Of a DNA stretch of 64,000 nt, positions 3,079 to 60,216 are shown one piece after another. The position numbers and the translations under genes are program-made. Position 1 is the first letter of the stretch. The number at the start of each line of letters is the position of its first letter. Source of the stretch: an uncultured Candidatus Saccharibacteria bacterium (GTDB lineage: Bacteria; Patescibacteriota; Minisyncoccia; Phycocordibacterales; UBA9973); the NCBI GenBank assembly GCA_964397435.1, contig CAYNHU010000001.1:209-64208 (forward strand). The letters are read 5' to 3'. The notes under the pieces are model-generated. The model saw only the letters and a list, made by a program, of their open reading frames with translations. It did no database searches and was not told where the DNA came from.

Positions 3079-3474
3079 ATGAAAACAGAACAAACTCCTC
3101 GTTCAACACTGATTGTTACTTCTATACTTTTTGAACTGTTACGTGACGGTATCCATGGTTCATGGAAAGTACCTACATTATTGATTGCCACGCCTTCAGA
3201 ACAAGATATACAAGAGCCAGAGAAATACCTGCTCGACCAAATCATCGAAAAGCATCCCGAAGCGGCACTCATCATCAAAAACCAGTTTACCCCAGTGTAT
3301 GAGAGATCTTCTCGCATCACTATTCAGAAACTCTATGTTACTGGACCGGAACTGGAACGCGATGCTGAACAAAGCCGTATAATACAGGGCAAGCTTTCGG
3401 CTTTTCTGAAAAACGAGACAGAGATACTCGCCCGTCACATTTATTTTCCTCACCTTAAACACAACCAACCATGA
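3079..3474 (+). CDS. Hypothetical protein
   Basis: 131-aa ORF, 4-nt overlap (ATGA) with next ORF suggests co-translation. Confidence 0.45.
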   Translation: MKTEQTPRSTLIVTSILFELLRDGIHGSWKVPTLLIATPSEQDIQEPEKYLLDQIIEKHPEAALIIKNQFTPVYERSSRITIQKLYVTGPELERDAEQSRIIQGKLSAFLKNETEILARHIYFPHLKHNQP

Positions 3475-3857: not shown

Positions 3858-6464
3858 TTACTTACGTAATACTTTTTTGAGATATTTACCAGTATGTGAT
3901 TTTGGATTGTTTGCGACGTCTTCGGGTGTACCGACTGCAACAATTTTTCCACCACCAACGCCACCTTCAGGGCCGATATCAATCAAGTAGTCAGAGCATT
4001 TAATAATGTCCATGTTGTGCTCAATCAATACAACGGTGTTGCCTTTTTGAACGAGCAACTGGAGCACGTCGAGCAATTTTGCAACGTCATCATAGTGCAA
4101 TCCAACAGTTGGCTCATCAAGCAAGTAAATTGTTTTTTCAAGATGTGGTCGGTAGAGTTCTGAACTGATTTTGACACGTTGCGCTTCTCCACCCGAAAGT
4201 GTTGTCGCACTTTGTCCAAGTTCGAGATATGCAAGTCCTACATCACCGAGCGTTTGCAATCGATCGTGAATCGCAGGAATATCTTCGAAGAACGTAAGCG
4301 CTTCTTCGACAGTCATGCGGAGAATTTCGTAAATGTTCTTTTTCTTGTATTTAACTGCGAGTGTTTCTTTGTCGAATCGTTTGCCGGCACAGACATCACA
4401 GGTAACGTACACCGTTGGCAAGAAGTGCATTTCAACAGCAATTTCGCCATTACCTTCACACGCTTCACAGCGACCGCCTTTGACGTTAAATGAGAAACGG
4501 TTTGATTTCCATCCACGCAAGCGAGCTTCTTCGGTTGCGGCAAACAAATCACGAATATGTGTCCACGCGCCAGTGTAGGTTGCGATGTTTGAACGTGGTG
4601 TACGGCCGATTGGAGATTGGTCGATCAAAATAGCACGTGAGATGTATTCTGTCCCAGTAAATGACGCGCAGTTATATCGCTCCGCTGAACGGTAGCGACG
4701 GTCGAGTTTGGCAGCAAGATTTTTGTGCAAAATCTCGTACATAAATGAACTTTTTCCAGAACCAGACACACCTGTGATTGTCACCATGCGTCCAAGTGGA
4801 ACTTCAACATTCATGTCTTTGATATTGAATACATTACCGTTAACGATTTTGATACTTCCCTTGTCTTTGGTGCGACGTTCGTCAGGAACTTCAATTTTGG
4901 TTTCTTCGCGGAGGTATGCAAGTGTACGTGAACCACTGTCATTTTTCTTTGCAGACAAGAGATGGTCAAGGAATCCTGAAACAATAACGTTACCACCGTG
5001 CACGCCGGCTTTTGGTCCGATATCAACGATATAGTCCGATGCGTAGATTGTGTCTTCATCGTGCTCAACAACCAAAATAGTGTTGCCGAGGTCACGCAAG
5101 TTGAGCAATGTTTCAATCAAGCGTTCATTGTCACGCTGGTGCAAACCAATCGTTGGTTCATCGAGCACGTAGAGTGCGCCCACCAGTCGTGAGCCGAGCT
5201 GTGATGCGAGACGAATACGCTGCGCTTCACCACCTGAGAGTGTATTTGCACGACGATCGAGTGTGAGATATTCGAGACCCACATCAAGCATGAACTGGAG
5301 ACGTGCTTCAATTTCGCGCAATACTGGAACTGAAATTTCTTTATCTTTTGGAGAAAGTTTGAGGTTTGTAATGAAGTGCTGCGCATCAGCGATCGAGAGT
5401 GACGCAAAGCGAACAACGTTGATGCGAGTTTTTTGATCGTTTCCGATAAACACATTGAGCGCTTCAACACGAAGACGCTTACCCTGACAACCATCACATG
5501 GTTCATCGCCAAAGAAATGCTTCGTGCCAAGTCCATTACACACAGCACATGCACCATATGGTGAGTTGAATGAGAACAAACGTGGTTCAATTTCTGGAAA
5601 TGAGAAACCATCGTTCGGACATGCGAATTTCGCTGAAAGCAAAAATTCTTCTTGTCCATCAAACTGAATCGTTACCAAACCATCAGCTTCGAGCAATGCG
5701 CGCTCAACTGCTTCTGAGAGGCGCTGACGGCTGCCGTCTTTGTCTGCCTTGAATTCATGCACAGCAAATTCATCAACGAGCACATCGATGTTGTGTGCTT
5801 TGTTTTTTGAGAGCACAATTTGTTCACGAAGATTTTTCATCGCGCCATCGAGACGGATTGAAACGAAACCTTTGCCGAGTAAATCGTAGAGCATCTGGTA
5901 GTGCTCGCCTTTTCGTCCGCGAATAATCGGTGCGAAAATGTGCACTTTGGTATCATTCCACTCAACACCCATGACTGACTTTTTCTTGCCGCCCTCTTTC
6001 ATGAAGCCATTCACTTTTTCAATGATGAAGTTAACGATTTCTTCGTTCGAGAGTTTTTTGATTTCTGTACCACAATCAGGACAAATTGGTTTACCAATAC
6101 GAGCATAGAGCACGCGGAGATAGTCGTAAATTTCGGTAATGGTTGCTACCGTTGAACGTGGGTTATTTGAACGAGACTTCTGATCGATTGAGATTGCCGG
6201 TGACAAACCAGTAATTTCATCAACATCTGGTTTTGGCATTTGGTTCAAAAATTGTCGGGCGTACGCCGAAAGTGACTCAACGTAGCGACGCTGGCCTTCT
6301 GCGAAAATAGTGTCGAATGCAAGTGATGATTTACCTGAACCAGACATACCGGTTACCACAATCATTTTATTGCGTGGCATTTCAACATCTATGTTTTTCA
6401 AGTTATGGGTTCGAGCCCCCTTAACAATGATCGAATCCTGATTTTTATTTTCTTTATGTGGCAT
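3858..6464 (-). CDS. uvrA: Excinuclease ABC subunit A
   Basis: Two ABC ATPase modules ([23 protein letters not shown]), zinc-finger cysteines, LSGGEAQR signatures; start taken at MPHKENK (M40 of the longest ORF). Confidence 0.92.
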
Positions 6465-19931: not shown

Positions 19932-20127
19932 CCACAGTTATACCATGAAAACGCATCAAGGGCACGCCAAAGAAAATATCGCTAAGTGTGAGGACGAGGA
20001 CGCCTTCAACGTACCAGTCAAAAAAGTAGAATCCAATGCTTGCCAAAATAATAGTTACCCAAAACGGAGTCCAGAAAACCGAAAGCAAGCAGCCGACAGT
20101 ATAGAGAATACGAAAAAGTGTTGTCAT
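19855..20127 (-). CDS. Hypothetical small membrane protein (3 TM)
   Basis: 90 aa upstream of PBP2, where mreD sits in rod-shape operons, but too short to call. Confidence 0.35.
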   Translation of the reverse strand: MTTLFRILYTVGCLLSVFWTPFWVTIILASIGFYFFDWYVEGVLVLTLSDIFFGVPLMRFHGITVVGTLIGAILFAVIEALKRFTRYGTI

Positions 20128-20672
20128 ACAATTACATTAAAATAACGCAACACAACACGGAGTACTACAAACGCGCCAATCAAAATAGCTCCATAGAAAA
20201 GATACATTTTACCGAAGAAAAGTGCGAGAGCTGCGTACCAATAAAATCCTGGGCCAGCATCATACGCAACTGACACATTTCCCTGTGCTGGTTTGCCCTT
20301 GATTGCGATCGTTGCATCCTTCCCCGCCACATCGCGAAGAGCTTCATATTTTTTAGCGAGATCCTGACGATACACGTCAAATGTATTCACTTTGTCTTTG
20401 ATCGATTGTGGAATCACGGCTACAACTTTTTTCTCCCATTCATCAATAACCTCGAGTTGCGTATCGAAACTGCCCGTAGCTGAAGTTGCTGTTGTTTTGG
20501 TTGTGGCTGTTTTTGAAGTGGTCGTAGGAGTTACCTTTGTCTGTGTTGTAATTGTTCGCTCCGTTGTTTGCGGCGTGCGATCTGGGGCAAATTGAAACTG
20601 CTGTGCAGCAACAACCTGTGGAGCAAGCATTCCGAGAACTATCATTGTGTATACAATACCAGTCCGTTTCAT
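20124..20672 (-). CDS. Hypothetical Thr-rich secreted protein with C-terminal TM
   Basis: 182 aa; signal peptide, Thr/Lys-rich tract, C-terminal hydrophobic helix. Confidence 0.45.
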   Translation of the reverse strand: MKRTGIVYTMIVLGMLAPQVVAAQQFQFAPDRTPQTTERTITTQTKVTPTTTSKTATTKTTATSATGSFDTQLEVIDEWEKKVVAVIPQSIKDKVNTFDVYRQDLAKKYEALRDVAGKDATIAIKGKPAQGNVSVAYDAGPGFYWYAALALFFGKMYLFYGAILIGAFVVLRVVLRYFNVIV

Positions 20673-30580: not shown

Positions 30581-31678
30581 ATTCGCGAGAAATGCTTCAA
30601 TAATTCTTCGAACTTCTTTTGCATTGTTCCCCTGTTCCATGATTTCTACACGCAATTCTTTGGCTCCAGGGAAACCATTGATGTACGCTTTAAAATGTTT
30701 TTTCATGATTGAGAAACTTTTGATATCACCAAGAAGCTGTTCATACAGCTCACAGTGTTTAATGAATACGTTGAGTTTTTCTTTGGTATCTACTTCTGAA
30801 ACAGTGTACCGAGCGTCTCCTCCGCGAAGTTTGCGCGCGATGAAACCTGGCAACACTTTTGCAATCCAGCTTGTCTTCCATGTTCCCTTTTGAAGAATGC
30901 GGCGTCTGCGATCAAACAACCATGGATTACCAAAAATCGCACGACCAATCATGATTCCATCACAACCAGTTTCTTTCGCTTTGTGCAATCCATCTTCGAT
31001 CGTCATCACATCACCGTTACCAATAATGAGCGTTGGAACGTTCATCTGATTTCTAATTTCAACAACACGTTTGATACGAGACCAATCAGCCGGAACAGCA
31101 GACAATTCTTTGCGGGTTCGAGCATGAATAGTGAGCGCTGCAATATTTTCAGCTAATAGTTTTGGAATCCATTCTTCAATTTCAACCTTACTGTAACCAA
31201 CACGAGTTTTGACTGACACAGGAATGTCACCTGCGCCTTCTTTGGCTGCACGAATCACTGCAACTGCAACATCAGGAGTTTTAATCATACACGCACCAGC
31301 ACCCTGTTTTTCAATCGTTCGGTCAGGGCATCCCATGTTGATATCGATACCATCAAAACCAAGCTCGTGGCACAGTTGCGCAGCTTTTCGCATAGTGTTT
31401 GGATCAGCAGTGAAAAGCTGCGCAACAATCGGCCGCTCTCCTTCTGTATATTCCAAATCGCGCATCAGCGCTGCTCGTCCAACTTCGTGAGACAATCCAT
31501 TGGCAGAAACGAATTCAGTCCAAAAAACATCTGGGCCACCTTCAGGTTGTCCATGTCGTGAATATTTTGCAACCAAACGTCGAAATGCCGGATCGGTTAC
31601 GTCCGCCATTGGCGCAAGTGCAAAAAACGGTCGCGGGAGTTTCTGCCAAAATCCCAAATTGTGTGGTGTGTGTGTCAT
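30572..31678 (-). CDS. dus: tRNA-dihydrouridine synthase
   Basis: Dus TIM-barrel with FMN-binding motif (LAPMADVTD) and catalytic Cys; C-terminal helical domain. Confidence 0.85.
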   Translation of the reverse strand: MTHTPHNLGFWQKLPRPFFALAPMADVTDPAFRRLVAKYSRHGQPEGGPDVFWTEFVSANGLSHEVGRAALMRDLEYTEGERPIVAQLFTADPNTMRKAAQLCHELGFDGIDINMGCPDRTIEKQGAGACMIKTPDVAVAVIRAAKEGAGDIPVSVKTRVGYSKVEIEEWIPKLLAENIAALTIHARTRKELSAVPADWSRIKRVVEIRNQMNVPTLIIGNGDVMTIEDGLHKAKETGCDGIMIGRAIFGNPWLFDRRRRILQKGTWKTSWIAKVLPGFIARKLRGGDARYTVSEVDTKEKLNVFIKHCELYEQLLGDIKSFSIMKKHFKAYINGFPGAKELRVEIMEQGNNAKEVRRIIEAFLANKK

Positions 31679-32604
31679 TGTGTTTGTTCTTCTACAACAG
31701 GAACTGTTTCCTGTGATGTCGCATCGGGAGAGTTTCCAAATTTGTAATACATTTTCTTGTCGTATCGCAAATCAAGATACTGCAATGATGCAAACGAGTC
31801 TGTGAGTTGTTTTTGTAAACTTGCTGAGGTTACTGCGACCGACAAATTATCAATCACCGTTACGAGATCCTGATCTGCGGTAAAAACAACTTTCTGCTTT
31901 GTATCATTAAATGACGGAGAAAGCAAAAATGCTGACACACCAGTCGGATAGGTAATGAAACCTGACGGTGGCAAATTGAGCTCAGTTAAGCGTTCTTTGA
32001 AACGTACGATGTTTTTGAAATAGTCATCACGTGCGAACAATGCTTTGCCTACAGGAGACTCAGTCGCGCCCCATGTGTACGCTCCATAAAAAACAAAGTA
32101 CACATTACCAGAAAATGTTGGTGACTTCGAGAAAATGTATCCATGATCATCAACGTAGTAGCACGTACGTGAACTATCATCTCGCTCACGAGGAAGTCCG
32201 TCGCACCACAAATACACATTTTTACGCTCAACAATATCGACAACCAATGTATTCCAATTTTCACGATGAATCTCGACAGTACTTGCACGCGGGAAACGTT
32301 CTTTGATGAGACGTTCGAGAAAACGTTCTGGATATACAAGCACCATGCTTTTCGGAATAACAAATCCATATTTTTCATGCAGCACATTTTGCACCAGCGT
32401 CGTAACTGATTCAGTCGTAATAATGTAATTCCCTCGCACAACAACTGATTGAATTTGAAGTTGTTTGATATACGTAACTCCGATAAGTCCCACAACAAGC
32501 ACAATGACCGCGATACACCCAAGCAAAAAGCGCACGCGTGCACGACGTCGACGCTTTTCTTTTAATTCACGTATTCGTTCTCCTCCGGCTCGTTCAACTG
32601 CCAT
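31675..32604 (-). CDS. FtsQ/DivIB-like cell division protein (TM + POTRA)
   Basis: Arg-rich N-terminus, one TM helix, POTRA-like segment (VRGNYIITTESV...). Confidence 0.5.
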   Translation of the reverse strand: MAVERAGGERIRELKEKRRRRARVRFLLGCIAVIVLVVGLIGVTYIKQLQIQSVVVRGNYIITTESVTTLVQNVLHEKYGFVIPKSMVLVYPERFLERLIKERFPRASTVEIHRENWNTLVVDIVERKNVYLWCDGLPRERDDSSRTCYYVDDHGYIFSKSPTFSGNVYFVFYGAYTWGATESPVGKALFARDDYFKNIVRFKERLTELNLPPSGFITYPTGVSAFLLSPSFNDTKQKVVFTADQDLVTVIDNLSVAVTSASLQKQLTDSFASLQYLDLRYDKKMYYKFGNSPDATSQETVPVVEEQTQ

Positions 32605-57021: not shown

Positions 57022-57339
57022 ATGGACGCACACAAAGAAAAACTTGAAGAACAGATTCGCCGACTCACTGCTGAGTTTCTTGAACGTGAGAGTAACCGTG
57101 ACGCACTCGTCACAGTAACACAAGCAATCCTCTCCCCTGATACCAAAAACGCGACTGTCTACATCTCAGTGTTACCTGAGACAAAAGAAAAAGCCGTTCT
57201 TGATTTCGCAAAACGACTTCGCCCAGAAATGCGCACCTACCTCAAAGAGCACATGCGCTCACGCATGATTCCGTTTATCGAAGTAGAAATTGATCTTGGT
57301 GAGAAACATCGACAAAAGATTGATAATTTATTAAGATAA
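57022..57339 (+). CDS. rbfA: Ribosome-binding factor A
   Basis: KH-like RbfA fold; infB-rbfA synteny; start taken at MDAHKEK. Confidence 0.8.
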   Translation: MDAHKEKLEEQIRRLTAEFLERESNRDALVTVTQAILSPDTKNATVYISVLPETKEKAVLDFAKRLRPEMRTYLKEHMRSRMIPFIEVEIDLGEKHRQKIDNLLR

Positions 57340-57354
57340 CACGGTAAGCGACAC

Positions 57355-57426
57355 GACCTAGTCGCCAAGTGGTAAGGCAAGGGTCTGCAAAACCCTTATA
57401 CGGCGGTTCGATTCCGCCCTAGGTCT
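57355..57426 (+). tRNA. tRNA-Cys (anticodon GCA)
   Basis: Cloverleaf by eye: anticodon loop CTGCAAA, U73 discriminator, T-arm GGCGG-TTCGATT-CCGCC. Confidence 0.8.
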
Positions 57427-57452
57427 CACTGAGCGTCTGTGACACTCAATAT

Positions 57453-57536
57453 GCCCAGATGATGAAACTGGTAGACATAGGGGACTTAAAATCCCCAGGC
57501 AGCAATGCCGTGTGGGTTCGATTCCCACTCTGGGCA
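57453..57536 (+). tRNA. tRNA-Leu (anticodon UAA)
   Basis: Cloverleaf by eye: anticodon loop CTTAAAA, long variable arm; 84 nt; no intron. Confidence 0.85.
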
Positions 57537-57607
57537 CGTTACATTGATTATATAAATCTTTATTTATATTTTATAAGTATTTTTTGAGTGTATTATAAAA
57601 TACACTT

Positions 57608-58057
57608 ATGGCACACAGAAAAGGGAAAGTTCAAATCACCTGGAATGCCAATTTTGCCTATGTGCTTGGTATTATTGCTGCTGATGGAAATCTTTCTCCT
57701 GACGGCAGGCATATCAATATCACATCAAAAGATTACGAACTGGTTTTAAAATGCAAAAAATCTCTCGGTTTAAAAAATAAAATCGGCCGCAAGGCACGAG
57801 GAGGATCAATAAATAAAAAATATTCTGTTCTTCAATTTGGTGATATTGTTTTCTATAATTTTCTGATCAAGATTAGTTTTACTCCAAATAAATCACGTAC
57901 ACTCTCAAAAATACAACTGCCTCAACAATATTTCAGAGATTTTTTACGTGGATGTATTGATGGCGATGGAAGTATTAGTATTTCCAGACATCCTGAAAGT
58001 AATCATGATCAATATAAGATACGTCTTTGCTCAGGTAGCAGAAAATTTTTAGTTTGA
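57608..58057 (+). CDS. LAGLIDADG-family homing endonuclease, two-motif monomeric type, apparently truncated by an in-frame TGA (frame stays open to 58252)
   Basis: Motif 1 LGIIAADGNL and motif 2 LRGCIDGDGSIS; after TGA at 58055 the same frame continues for 64 codons into tRNA-Leu(UAG); AT-rich. Confidence 0.65.
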   Translation: MAHRKGKVQITWNANFAYVLGIIAADGNLSPDGRHINITSKDYELVLKCKKSLGLKNKIGRKARGGSINKKYSVLQFGDIVFYNFLIKISFTPNKSRTLSKIQLPQQYFRDFLRGCIDGDGSISISRHPESNHDQYKIRLCSGSRKFLV

Positions 58058-58237
58058 GTATTACAACAATGCAGAGAGATGTGTTCACCTATTAAAGGTT
58101 CAATACACCCACAAAATCAATCAAATATACATATACTCGTATTTGCCAAACATGATAGTGTAAAAATGTTACGTTGGATATATCATGAAAATGTGGTATG
58201 TTTATCAAGGAAAAAGAACGTAGCAGACAGAATTTTA

Positions 58238-58321
58238 GGGCAAGTGGCGTAATTGGTAGCCGCACTGCGCTTAGGACGCAGCGAGAGTAATCTCATGGGA
58301 GTTCGAGTCTCCCCTTGCCCA
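58238..58321 (+). tRNA. tRNA-Leu (anticodon UAG)
   Basis: Cloverleaf by eye: anticodon loop CTTAGGA, long variable arm; 84 nt. Confidence 0.85.
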
Positions 58322-58382
58322 CAAACACAAAAAAGATTGAATTTTCTGTGTTTTCGTGTATACTTAAAAACGTTTTAGTACT

Positions 58383-58455
58383 GCGCCCGTAGCTCAGATG
58401 GTAGAGCAGCTCCCTTTTAAGGAGATGGTCGGAGGTTCGATCCCTCCCGGGCGCA
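58383..58455 (+). tRNA. tRNA-Lys (anticodon UUU)
   Basis: Cloverleaf by eye: anticodon loop CTTTTAA, T-arm GGAGG-TTCGATC-CCTCC; 73 nt. Confidence 0.85.
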
Positions 58456-58530
58456 CACCCAAAAAACACAATAAAAAAGAAGCACTAGCGAGGGCTAATG
58501 CTTCTGTGTTTTAAAAATTTTGTATCCTTA

Positions 58531-60216
58531 CTACTTTTTCTTTTTTTTACTCAATATCGCTGTTGCGATCTGAGTAATAGTAGCAAGTGTGTTCGGGTCA
58601 AGACCCTTAACATCAAAGTTCTCTTTCGAAATATCAAGCCAGATTCTAGCTCGTTTTTCTACCTCAGCCTCATTAAGACCAGGGAAAGAACGCTTAATTA
58701 CATCCTTAACCTGTGTTAACTCTGACTGGAGCGCCATCGCATCCTTCAGCTTACCAACAAATAAAGGTTGGCTCATTGAAGAAAAGACATACAGTTTTAC
58801 ACCGATTGTTGCAAGAGCACCCCTCACAATCTTATCTACCTCATTACATAAAGCAAATGATTCCTGATCATCAGGATCGTTTTTGTCCACATCCGGTAAA
58901 TTTCTTTTAACAATCGTTAGGGCTTCGTCTAAGCTCTTTTTTCTAGCTACAATACCAATTGCCTTGTAGTACTCGTTACGAATCATCTCGTTGAAATCCT
59001 CAGTTTTTGCACCTGGGAATCTCATAATCCAGTCAACGTTAGTATCCATAGGATACACCAAGAATTCAAACTCTCTAATTCTAATAAAGGTGTTGCCTTT
59101 AAACATGAAAGTTACTTTTTCTGGGTCGTTAGATGGATTAAGTTTCTCTTTCCGCTTATCTAAGTTTACATCTGGGTTACCACCTTGCGAATCAGGTATA
59201 CCTAAAATGTAGAACCATGGCATTACCCAACCTTCACCTTGGTGAAATTGTGCTACTTGTGCTTGACTGAATCTTGATAGAATCAGTTTAATCACATGCG
59301 GATCAACACTCACACCACCTAAGTAGATTAAGTAAGTAAAGAAAGCGAAACTCATAAACGGTATGAGGGCATACAAAGCATCTGTACCATCATTTACTGA
59401 CAAGGTTCTAAGTGTAACAAACATTGTCGCTAACGATAGTACTAGTACAAACAGAAACCCGTAGTTAAAACCATTGTTGTCTGTAGCGTGATCATGATCA
59501 TGGCCATTGTGGTGACCACTACCATGATGTCCATCATGGTCATCATGACCGTCTTTTACCCCAAATCTAGCTTTCACTAGAAACTTAGGAGAAAATTTTA
59601 CGAGCAAGGCAACAATGATCAGGAATACCATTACAGTTACCACTGTGAACGTTATCCAGCTCAAAATACGGCTTGTTGGATTATCACTGCTCTGAGTTGC
59701 GTCAGTGATAAAACCAGTTGTGCCTGCTTCAAGTGCAGGGTTAGAAAAATCAATCGAACAACCATCATAGGTAGAACACCTGCCGAAACCAATCGTAACT
59801 GGTTTGGTGCCGGTATTTGTAAAAAGTACAAATTCTGTTCCATAACGAAGATCGCTATTCCCTTTGTCGTCAACAGCCGTTAAGCCATCTTCTCCATTTG
59901 GGAAATCGTATGGGTAGTACTCTTTCGGGTTATCGTTTGCTTTAAACGTCACACCGGGTATAAGAGTGTAGTAATGGTACTGACCAACTGACATTTCAGT
60001 TGGTAAGTATACTTCTGCATCTTCTGACACAAGAGTACCTCGGCCAATAACCGTGTGCATTATTACTTTTTTCTCACCACCGAAAATCATCCAAGCTGCT
60101 ATCAGTAAAAATACGATAAAGATAACTGCTGTGATTGTGGTGTAAAAAGAAGAATGTTTAGTAGTGTCTCCACCACCATGTCCGTGGTCGTCATGACCTT
60201 CTGCGTGTGCGCTCAT
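58531..60216 (-). CDS. His-rich polytopic membrane protein (4 TM) with large extracytoplasmic and cytoplasmic domains; unknown function
   Basis: 561 aa; His/Asp-rich tracts at N-terminus (HAEGHDDHGHGGG) and in a loop (GHDDHDGHHGSGHHNGHDHDH), suggesting metal binding. Confidence 0.55.
   Translation of the reverse strand: MSAHAEGHDDHGHGGGDTTKHSSFYTTITAVIFIVFLLIAAWMIFGGEKKVIMHTVIGRGTLVSEDAEVYLPTEMSVGQYHYYTLIPGVTFKANDNPKEYYPYDFPNGEDGLTAVDDKGNSDLRYGTEFVLFTNTGTKPVTIGFGRCSTYDGCSIDFSNPALEAGTTGFITDATQSSDNPTSRILSWITFTVVTVMVFLIIVALLVKFSPKFLVKARFGVKDGHDDHDGHHGSGHHNGHDHDHATDNNGFNYGFLFVLVLSLATMFVTLRTLSVNDGTDALYALIPFMSFAFFTYLIYLGGVSVDPHVIKLILSRFSQAQVAQFHQGEGWVMPWFYILGIPDSQGGNPDVNLDKRKEKLNPSNDPEKVTFMFKGNTFIRIREFEFLVYPMDTNVDWIMRFPGAKTEDFNEMIRNEYYKAIGIVARKKSLDEALTIVKRNLPDVDKNDPDDQESFALCNEVDKIVRGALATIGVKLYVFSSMSQPLFVGKLKDAMALQSELTQVKDVIKRSFPGLNEAEVEKRARIWLDISKENFDVKGLDPNTLATITQIATAILSKKKKK

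Follow-up and report, generated by a model that had tools for sequence, protein, structure and literature searches.

Homing endonuclease genes (HEGs) that reside in essential genes usually owe their survival to the self-splicing introns or inteins that conceal them, and the intron-less ones known so far are mostly from phage. Among tRNA genes, tRNA-Leu(UAA) is the classic site of a group I intron, which in bacteria and plastids normally lacks an open reading frame (ORF). Gene-restoring elements are known as well: integrase-type islands rebuild the tRNA end they enter, and endonuclease ORFs of fungal mitochondria supply a substitute for the gene terminus. In the Candidate Phyla Radiation (CPR, Patescibacteria), LAGLIDADG genes are located inside 16S or 23S rRNA genes, in many cases within introns of group I or II; among these rRNA insertions, LAGLIDADG_3 types were reported for 16S only, and tRNA is not mentioned (PMC11270868). 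T-even phages possess free-standing endonucleases and 'intronless homing', with SegB situated in the tRNA gene cluster of T4 (PMC2988022). Here, a stretch of 64,000 nucleotides from contig CAYNHU010000001.1 of an uncultured Candidatus Saccharibacteria bacterium (the window) is analysed, which carries a LAGLIDADG ORF with an in-frame TGA between two tRNA-Leu genes. This ORF probably represents a free-standing LAGLIDADG HEG in decay, of the monomeric two-domain type and without an intron, that belongs to a Patescibacteria-wide family fixed at tRNA-Leu(UAG).

The ORF starts with an ATG at 57608 on the plus strand and reaches the TGA (58055-58057) after 149 codons. This 5' part (57608-58057) contains both LAGLIDADG motifs, LGIIAADGNL (57665-57694) with the catalytic Asp26 and LRGCIDGDGSIS (57944-57979) with the catalytic Asp120; both aspartates are invariant among 24 aligned family members. 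Pfam LAGLIDADG_3 (PF14528) matches the ORF with E=3e-9. Past the TGA, the same frame remains open for 64 more codons to a TAA at 58250-58252, a read-through total of 214 aa, and this remaining part (58058-58252, plus strand) is homologous to the C-terminal half of domain 2. The read-through shares 15 nt with the following tRNA-Leu(UAG) (58238-58322), and its TAA corresponds to tRNA positions 13-15, in the D-loop region. GC content of the ORF is 0.32-0.34, compared with 0.42 in the whole window. The original prediction is borne out in these respects, i.e. a two-motif ORF of monomeric size (relatives have ~212 aa), an in-frame TGA followed by open codons that run into the next tRNA, and an AT-rich setting. 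By its sequence the ORF is a two-motif, monomeric-size LAGLIDADG HEG.

The read-through sequence has 1,746 homologues, nearly all 208-230 aa long and from metagenome-assembled genomes (MAGs) of Patescibacteria, which cover 98-100% of the 214 codons. Because full-length relatives of 211-230 aa cover the read-through to this extent, the 64 codons after the TGA are part of the gene; the invariant residues G164, L177, K181, Y192, L199, R201, K202 and L210 are all retained there. A downstream part dissimilar to LAGLIDADG C-terminal halves, which had been considered beforehand, is thereby refuted. Family ORFs are at present annotated as 'hypothetical' or 'intein-containing'.

By sequence, the nearest protein in the PDB is I-Tsp061I, an enzyme encoded in an archaeal intron (2dch, E 1e-3). 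An AlphaFold model of the read-through protein (pLDDT 89, pTM 0.88) matches I-Tsp061I, I-DmoI and I-AniI in Foldseek with probability 1.0, and intein endonuclease domains also match; the best structural match is again 2dch (6e-10), followed by I-DmoI. These enzymes and the intein domains have the same fold, the same size and two LAGLIDADG helices, each with a catalytic Asp. However, sequence identity is only 14-18%, and those enzymes sit in splicing introns or inteins, whereas the tRNA-linked family is intron-less and located beside a bacterial tRNA. The tandem alpha-beta-beta-alpha-beta-beta-alpha domains, which constitute the DNA-binding saddle, are present in the read-through model only. 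Two strands of the second DNA-binding sheet, as well as three helices, come from residues 150-214, and therefore the 149-aa product, devoid of strands E165-168 and E175-179 and of the helices after residue 150, is unable to form a complete second domain.

The TGA falls on the nearly invariant Trp150 of the 24-member alignment, a Trp that also aligns with a Trp of I-Tsp061I. A sequencing or assembly error in an otherwise intact gene would require only the single G-to-A change that separates TGA from the expected TGG. However, the Logan assemblies SRR13355620, SRR13355621 and SRR13355622 are 100% identical to the window from 57398, 57469 and 57483, respectively, to 58429, and the exact 149-aa product is on record from each of the three runs. 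Because these separate assemblies are identical across the locus, the TGA is no assembly accident; other signs of decay agree, and an error, which the original prediction had wished to see checked, is highly improbable.

Alternatively, the HEG may still be functional, with the TGA read as Trp by read-through or recoding to give the 214-aa enzyme. The position of the TGA exactly at a conserved Trp codon and the open downstream frame with its retained invariant residues are consistent with this explanation, as is the striking rarity of TGA as a stop: 35 long ORFs of the window end in 20 TAA, 15 TAG and 0 TGA, while TGA constitutes 22% of stops in 80 other Patescibacteria loci. The chance of a 64-codon open frame in such AT-rich DNA is roughly 0.006 by our own estimate. 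On the other hand, roughly 45 credible genes of the window lack any internal in-frame TGA, and TGA ends about 3 of roughly 57 probable genes. These three (3079-3474, 20124-20672 and 31675-32604) have their next in-frame stop 19-26 codons beyond; the first shares an ATGA overlap with the start of the next ORF, and the last lies directly before a Dus gene. The only tRNA-Trp in the window has the anticodon CCA. Furthermore, the family promoter described below is gone from the window copy, and extra substitutions are found at conserved sites. A functional read-through enzyme is accordingly quite unlikely. A reassigned TGA (genetic code table 4 or 25), tempting in view of the 0 of 35 TGA stops, is rejected because of the missing internal TGA codons together with the three probable genes that end in TGA. 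From the coding content of the window, we conclude that the genome uses the standard code, in which TGA is a rare but genuine stop, avoided rather than reassigned, and that the ORF is truncated. The TGA is most likely a real and recent inactivating mutation, as gathered from the TGG-to-TGA change at a near-invariant Trp and the open, homologous frame downstream; the recently inactivated endonuclease of the original prediction is the version that holds.

For a survey of the family, the locus scan was restricted to one genome per GTDB species, which yielded 308 loci with relatives, and the best 80 of these 308 were examined. In 77 of the 80 loci, the HEG is immediately adjacent to tRNA-Leu(UAG), whose place is taken by tRNA-Leu(GAG) in a single case. 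A same-strand tRNA-Leu(UAG) follows the HEG in 70, and 65 of these tRNAs start -12 to +31 nt from the end of the match; tRNA-Leu(UAG) is downstream but convergent in six loci, upstream of the HEG in two, and one locus is truncated by the end of its contig. The end of the conserved C-terminal helix (..SRKKxIAxKIL) is no more than about 1 nt away from tRNA position +1, and among 71 same-strand loci, 55 have their stop codon within the tRNA, at a depth of 10-24 nt. By comparison, the upstream neighbour varies among Lys(CUU) on either strand, Leu(UAA), Cys, and protein-coding genes with no tRNA. Intact HEG copies make up 76 of the 80. The constant adjacency to tRNA-Leu(UAG), outside any ribozyme or intein context, identifies the HEG as free-standing.

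The CPR rRNA-insertion LAGLIDADG genes (PMC11270868) share phylum, superfamily and a patchiness consistent with homing with the tRNA-Leu(UAG) family, which differs in its site and in the lack of an intron. No tRNA-linked LAGLIDADG gene in CPR was found described in the literature searched in full text. A search for phage or viral carriers produced one distant match in IMG/VR (31% identity) and relatives of only 27-30% identity in GenBank phages. The family is large, Patescibacteria-wide and apparently undescribed.

Two variants of the arrangement were observed. In the convergent loci L002, L003, L004, L005, L015 and L016 (e.g. L002:3001-3733), the HEG faces the 3' end of tRNA-Leu(UAG) at a distance of 11-19 nt (216 nt in L005). 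These loci keep the upstream promoter and tRNA relic described below, and their proteins are among the closest relatives of the window protein; a simple inversion does not explain the arrangement. A second variant is a tRNA-Leu(GAG)-linked subclade, comprising L072:2986-3724 and the metagenome locus L131:9029-9771, with the common protein motif DPRWKSSFMFY. One Liptonbacteria MAG possesses both a UAG-linked (L054) and a GAG-linked (L072) copy, which are only 45% identical.

In the window, tRNA genes were located by ARAGORN and Rfam. The cluster comprises four, all on the plus strand and all intron-less: tRNA-Cys(GCA) (57355-57427, Rfam 64 bits), tRNA-Leu(UAA) (57453-57537), tRNA-Leu(UAG) (58238-58322) and tRNA-Lys(UUU) (58383-58456). 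The tRNA-Leu(UAG) is intact and is the conserved partner of the HEG family; its variant D-arm (GGCGTAATTGGTAGCCGC) is also found in several HEG-carrying relatives. The intact tRNA-Leu(UAA), separated from the HEG by an AT-rich spacer of 70 nt (57538-57607, plus strand), is a variable neighbour and not the HEG partner.

This proximity had led to the suggestion that tRNA-Leu(UAA) once had a group I intron in its anticodon loop, of which the ORF is either a remnant or an escaped part. In favour of such an origin are the 70 nt distance, the classic status of this tRNA as a group I site, and the 5'-half relic of a tRNA-Leu that family members do have upstream of the HEG (see below). However, the anticodon of this relic is TAG (GAG in L072), not TAA, and tRNA-Leu(UAA) is the upstream neighbour in only two of the 80 loci. 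Rfam searches returned no group I or II intron in the window at the gathering threshold, in 57300-58520 at E<=1, or in eight intact loci at E<=0.1. With 0-12 nt between relic and ATG and 0 nt between ORF and tRNA, a ribozyme would not fit in. No intron was reported in any tRNA-Leu(UAA) called in the fetched loci, the relatives in which the original prediction had proposed to look for one, and its premise that the tRNA-Leu(UAA) intron often carries LAGLIDADG ORFs is weak, as that intron is normally ORF-less. There is thus very little probability for the tRNA-Leu(UAA) origin. One part of the suggestion survives in altered form, namely entry into a tRNA-Leu anticodon loop, to which the relic points for the UAG isoacceptor.

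Conservation extends over the 45 nt that precede the start codon, even among loci with proteins of only about 50% identity. These nucleotides follow the motif ATTGG[CT]A.ACGCTATATG.YTTAG TATAAT, then 6 nt and the ATG. A strict promoter pattern (-35 box, 16-18 nt, -10 box, 4-9 nt, start codon) is present in 35 of 79 loci, compared with 0.07 expected from shuffled sequences, the dominant spacings being 17 and 6 nt. Because the -10 box lies 6 nt before the ATG, the mRNA would be leaderless. The relic pattern occurs in 52 of 79 loci (0.09 expected), and a tRNA-Leu(UAG) hidden Markov model (HMM) is collinear with the upstream regions at tRNA positions 1/2-37, with the match end always 13-20 nt before the ATG. 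The best HMM matches are those of L031 (1e-4), L069 (2e-4) and L037 (4e-4), followed by about 30 weaker ones in the same register; in the alignment, acceptor strand and D-arm are still complete in the relics of L031 and L037. The relic of the GAG-linked L072 reads CCTTGAG, as in the anticodon loop of its own tRNA, and elsewhere the relic carries TAG and ends at or near the anticodon. The architecture of the family is consequently a tRNA-Leu 5'-half relic, the HEG and a complete tRNA-Leu, in this order. From these alignments the family does seem to have entered the anticodon loop of a tRNA-Leu, of the UAG isoacceptor, without an intron. Unusually stable structures (z below -2) were observed in the 45 nt before the ATG in 9 of 31 loci; such hairpins recall the hairpin control of phage endonuclease genes.

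A further 80 metagenome loci were fetched via the neighbouring IF-2 gene and not via the HEG. Among these, 18 are syntenic (IF2-RbfA-Cys-...-Leu(UAG)), and only one (L095) has a HEG at tRNA-Leu(UAG). Around the 17 HEG-less tRNA-Leu(UAG) genes, no HEG remnant was detected below E=0.17 with the family HMM on six-frame translations. Presence and absence are hence polymorphic at one conserved site, beside which 77 of 80 sampled HEGs lie. No HEG-less variant of the window genome was recovered, as the Logan contigs with the window IF-2 end inside the tRNA cluster.

This distribution bears on the possibility that the LAGLIDADG protein of the family has been domesticated and serves the host in a role connected with tRNA-Leu(UAG), for example as a regulator or an RNA chaperone; it would be vertically inherited and often lost, with the window copy as a loss in progress. 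LAGLIDADG domestication, with WhiA and maturases as precedents, is discussed in PMC3984707, and both occur among the structural matches of the window protein. The prevalence of intact copies (76 of 80), as well as the fixed position and conserved promoter common to several orders, accords with a host function. So does a protein conservation similar to that of IF-2: over the same genome pairs, mean identity is 56% for the endonuclease and 50% for IF-2, and the identity of the endonuclease follows host divergence (rho 0.60). An endonuclease at least as conserved as IF-2, with mostly intact copies, also accords with a mobile HEG. In domesticated relatives such as WhiA, the catalytic Asp residues are lost. 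Both are invariant in this family, and the HEG is present in just one of the 18 syntenic relatives and has left no trace in the others. Moreover, the low GC content of the gene is typical of mobile DNA, and the adjacent tRNA exhibits an excess divergence, as expected of a nuclease target under attack. Domestication is therefore rather unlikely, and the free-standing HEG remains the preferred reading.

The divergence of the linked tRNA was assessed in close pairs, comparing L001, L006, L007, L010, L013 and L014 (with HEG) with L088 (without). In these pairs, tRNA-Leu(UAA) differs at 1-2 of 83 nt where aligned, whereas tRNA-Leu(UAG) differs at 12-17. The differences cluster at position 13, at positions 21-22, at the top of the anticodon stem (compensated) and in the variable arm; hardly any change is seen in the acceptor and T arms of the closest pair. 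Between all HEG and HEG-less loci, global identity of tRNA-Leu(UAG) drops by 2 points only, and the signal is clear only in the close pairs. D-arm variants (AGGC, GGCG or CCGC) are found in 35 of 69 linked tRNAs and in 1 of 17 HEG-less loci, while the relic D-stem is of the standard type (ACGC or ACAC) in 40 of 69, as in HEG-less genomes. This divergence would fit a nuclease target in the central part of tRNA-Leu(UAG) from which the linked copy has escaped, the comparisons being phylogenetically non-independent. Together with the patchy presence of the HEG, it may be an indirect sign of cleavage at insert-less alleles. A concerted evolution of relic and linked tRNA was also considered and dropped, with D-stem covariation in only 10 of 69 loci.

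Some individual tRNAs are peculiar. Linked tRNA-Leu(UAG) genes in L008 (3633-3717), L011 (3630-3714), L025 and L027 have D-loops without the near-universal G18-G19 (AAATTAGAAGAC, AAATAGAAGACAC, AAATAGAATACAC) and may be escape variants. The HEG-less L112 possesses a tRNA-Leu(UAG) (2098-2180) with a variant 'GTAGCC...TATAGGC' D-arm, 93% identical to the linked tRNA of L010 (3636-3718); this lineage may have lost the HEG cleanly and kept the variant tRNA. Three HEG-less loci, L088 (around 4780-4900, minus strand), L089 (6662-6775) and L112 (1945-2097), share a conserved element of ~60 nt (..CCGAGCCGGGGTYGCGAGATTTTTCAACAGAAAAATACTYGTGACCAC..) between tRNA-Lys(CUU) and tRNA-Leu(UAG), which has no match in Rfam.

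The following course of events could account for the architecture. The endonuclease would cut an insert-less tRNA-Leu(UAG) somewhere in the region from the D-stem to the anticodon arm, and repair would copy the cassette in, with the 5' half of the resident tRNA staying behind as the relic. A diverged, probably cleavage-resistant tRNA-Leu(UAG) would take over as the working copy. The relic D-loop (TTGGCA or TTGGTA) would provide the -35 element of a hybrid promoter from which a leaderless mRNA arises, and the RNase P cut at tRNA position +1 would strip the stop codon from this mRNA and so keep the enzyme level low. The direct repeat of relic and tRNA 5' half would permit clean loss of the HEG. 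The window copy is probably at the degeneration stage of the homing-endonuclease life cycle, its stop at Trp150 removing half of domain 2. Taken to its full extent, the family might be a natural 'cleave-and-replace' selfish cassette on an essential tRNA gene, which destroys the resident tRNA-Leu(UAG) near the anticodon arm, brings a resistant tRNA or forces one to evolve, reuses the orphaned 5' half as a -35 box, and sets RNase P processing against translation on each transcript. This extended version is put forward tentatively, with the odds somewhat against it.

Several points weigh against the decaying-HEG explanation. The sample of the best 80 loci is biased toward intact copies. The 64 open codons fit a recent inactivation, but would also be compatible with read-through. 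As endonuclease identity tracks that of the host IF-2, a large share of the inheritance may be vertical. Between D-stem and TTAG, the relic exceeds the tRNA by 1 nt, so that the breakpoint is uncertain between positions 26/27 and 36/37. The anticodon-stem segment of the relic (TATATG), conserved throughout the family, points to a single ancestral unit that spread or was passed on by descent more than to repeated fresh insertions. The anticodon stem-loop of the linked tRNA in L001 is the same as in the HEG-less L084, L089 and L112, and 18 linked tRNAs have a standard D-arm; resistance is thus not evident for all of them. The target, the insertion point and the immunity of the linked tRNA are all deduced from comparative patterns among loci that are phylogenetically non-independent.

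Compared with its relatives, the window copy shows further signs of decay. It deviates at 6 of 75 columns that are >=90% conserved (family mean 1.9, sd 1.8), namely N81V, G90S, K97R, A143G, W150stop and G163K. The relic/promoter motif was not found 5' of the window HEG with up to three mismatches allowed, nor does the tRNA 5' half recur there as a direct repeat; the spacer is without family relic and promoter, and a -10-like TATAAA (57594-57599) is what is left. A hairpin of 10 bp (57585-57608, -9.4 kcal/mol, z=-2.4) pairs with the A of the start codon. Inactivation was probably recent because frameshifts are absent and the catalytic residues intact. Upstream of tRNA-Cys, two promoter-like sites (57299-57337, plus strand; GTGAGA-17-GATAAT and TCGACA-17-TAAGAT) are consensus matches only, and the number of such sites in the tRNA cluster region is not above that in shuffled sequences; they are the probable promoter of the tRNA operon. 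The HEG of the window is most likely transcribed from these sites only, and probably persists as a 0.7-kb spacer transcribed within the Cys-Leu-Leu tRNA operon. The window copy should be annotated as a pseudogene.

Among described systems, the intronless homing of phage endonucleases, notably SegB, is the closest working analogy. In SegB (PMC2988022), as shown or proposed for the tRNA-Leu(UAG) family, an intron-less endonuclease gene lies between tRNA genes and has its target in a neighbouring tRNA region, the carrier is presumed immune by sequence differences, and expression is restrained by RNA structure and processing. In contrast, SegB is a GIY-YIG enzyme of a phage whose target is a tRNA intergenic region, while the tRNA-Leu(UAG) family is of the LAGLIDADG type and resides in bacterial chromosomes; unlike SegB, its ORF is fused to the tRNA 5' end and has a tRNA half-relic as probable promoter. 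The group I intron of cyanobacterial and plastid tRNA-Leu(UAA) resembles the family in that a tRNA-Leu is interrupted in or near the anticodon loop. However, the family is found at UAG or GAG isoacceptors and has no ribozyme, and its interrupted copy is unspliced and replaced by a complete tRNA downstream. Gene-restoring elements and synthetic 'cleave and rescue' drives follow the same logic, in that an essential copy is disrupted and a working copy supplied beside the selfish gene; enzymes and gene end differ, and the tRNA-Leu family leaves the 5' half as a relic.

The window feature alone is ordinary. As an arrangement, the family context seems to be novel: an intron-less LAGLIDADG gene is flanked by a tRNA-Leu half-relic on one side and by a diverged, complete tRNA-Leu(UAG) on the other. 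The family, with about 1,750 proteins and 308 species-representative loci from many orders of Patescibacteria, is settled at a fixed place in and beside an essential tRNA gene without a ribozyme, apparently by two devices, the tRNA half left as a promoter and the pairing with a complete but diverged tRNA copy. If the proposed course is true, it would constitute a new way of inserting into an RNA gene without an intron and without killing the host, and a natural analogue of cleave-and-rescue gene drives. It would also explain the odd tRNA-Leu(UAG) variants of these genomes and provide new rare-cutting enzymes with tRNA-gene targets.

Downstream of the HEG and its partner, tRNA-Lys(UUU) has a promoter-like site of its own (58337-58364), and a GC-rich terminator-like hairpin (58478-58505) closes the tRNA cluster. 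The Rfam model RF04354 (Plastid-ycf2 5'UTR) gives weak, sub-threshold antisense matches to tRNA-Leu(UAA) (57453-57537) and tRNA-Lys(UUU) (58383-58456) of the window (minus strand) and to L089:6588-6661, which are almost certainly an artefact of tRNA-like sequence in the model. The IF-2 of the window has 57-62% similarity to MAGs of Paceibacteria and relatives. On the minus strand, next to the tRNA cluster, a predicted membrane protein of 561 aa (58531-60216) has a weak, sub-threshold match to ABC2_membrane_3 and contains the His/Asp-rich stretches HDDHGHGGGD and HDDHDGHHGSGHHNGHDHDH.

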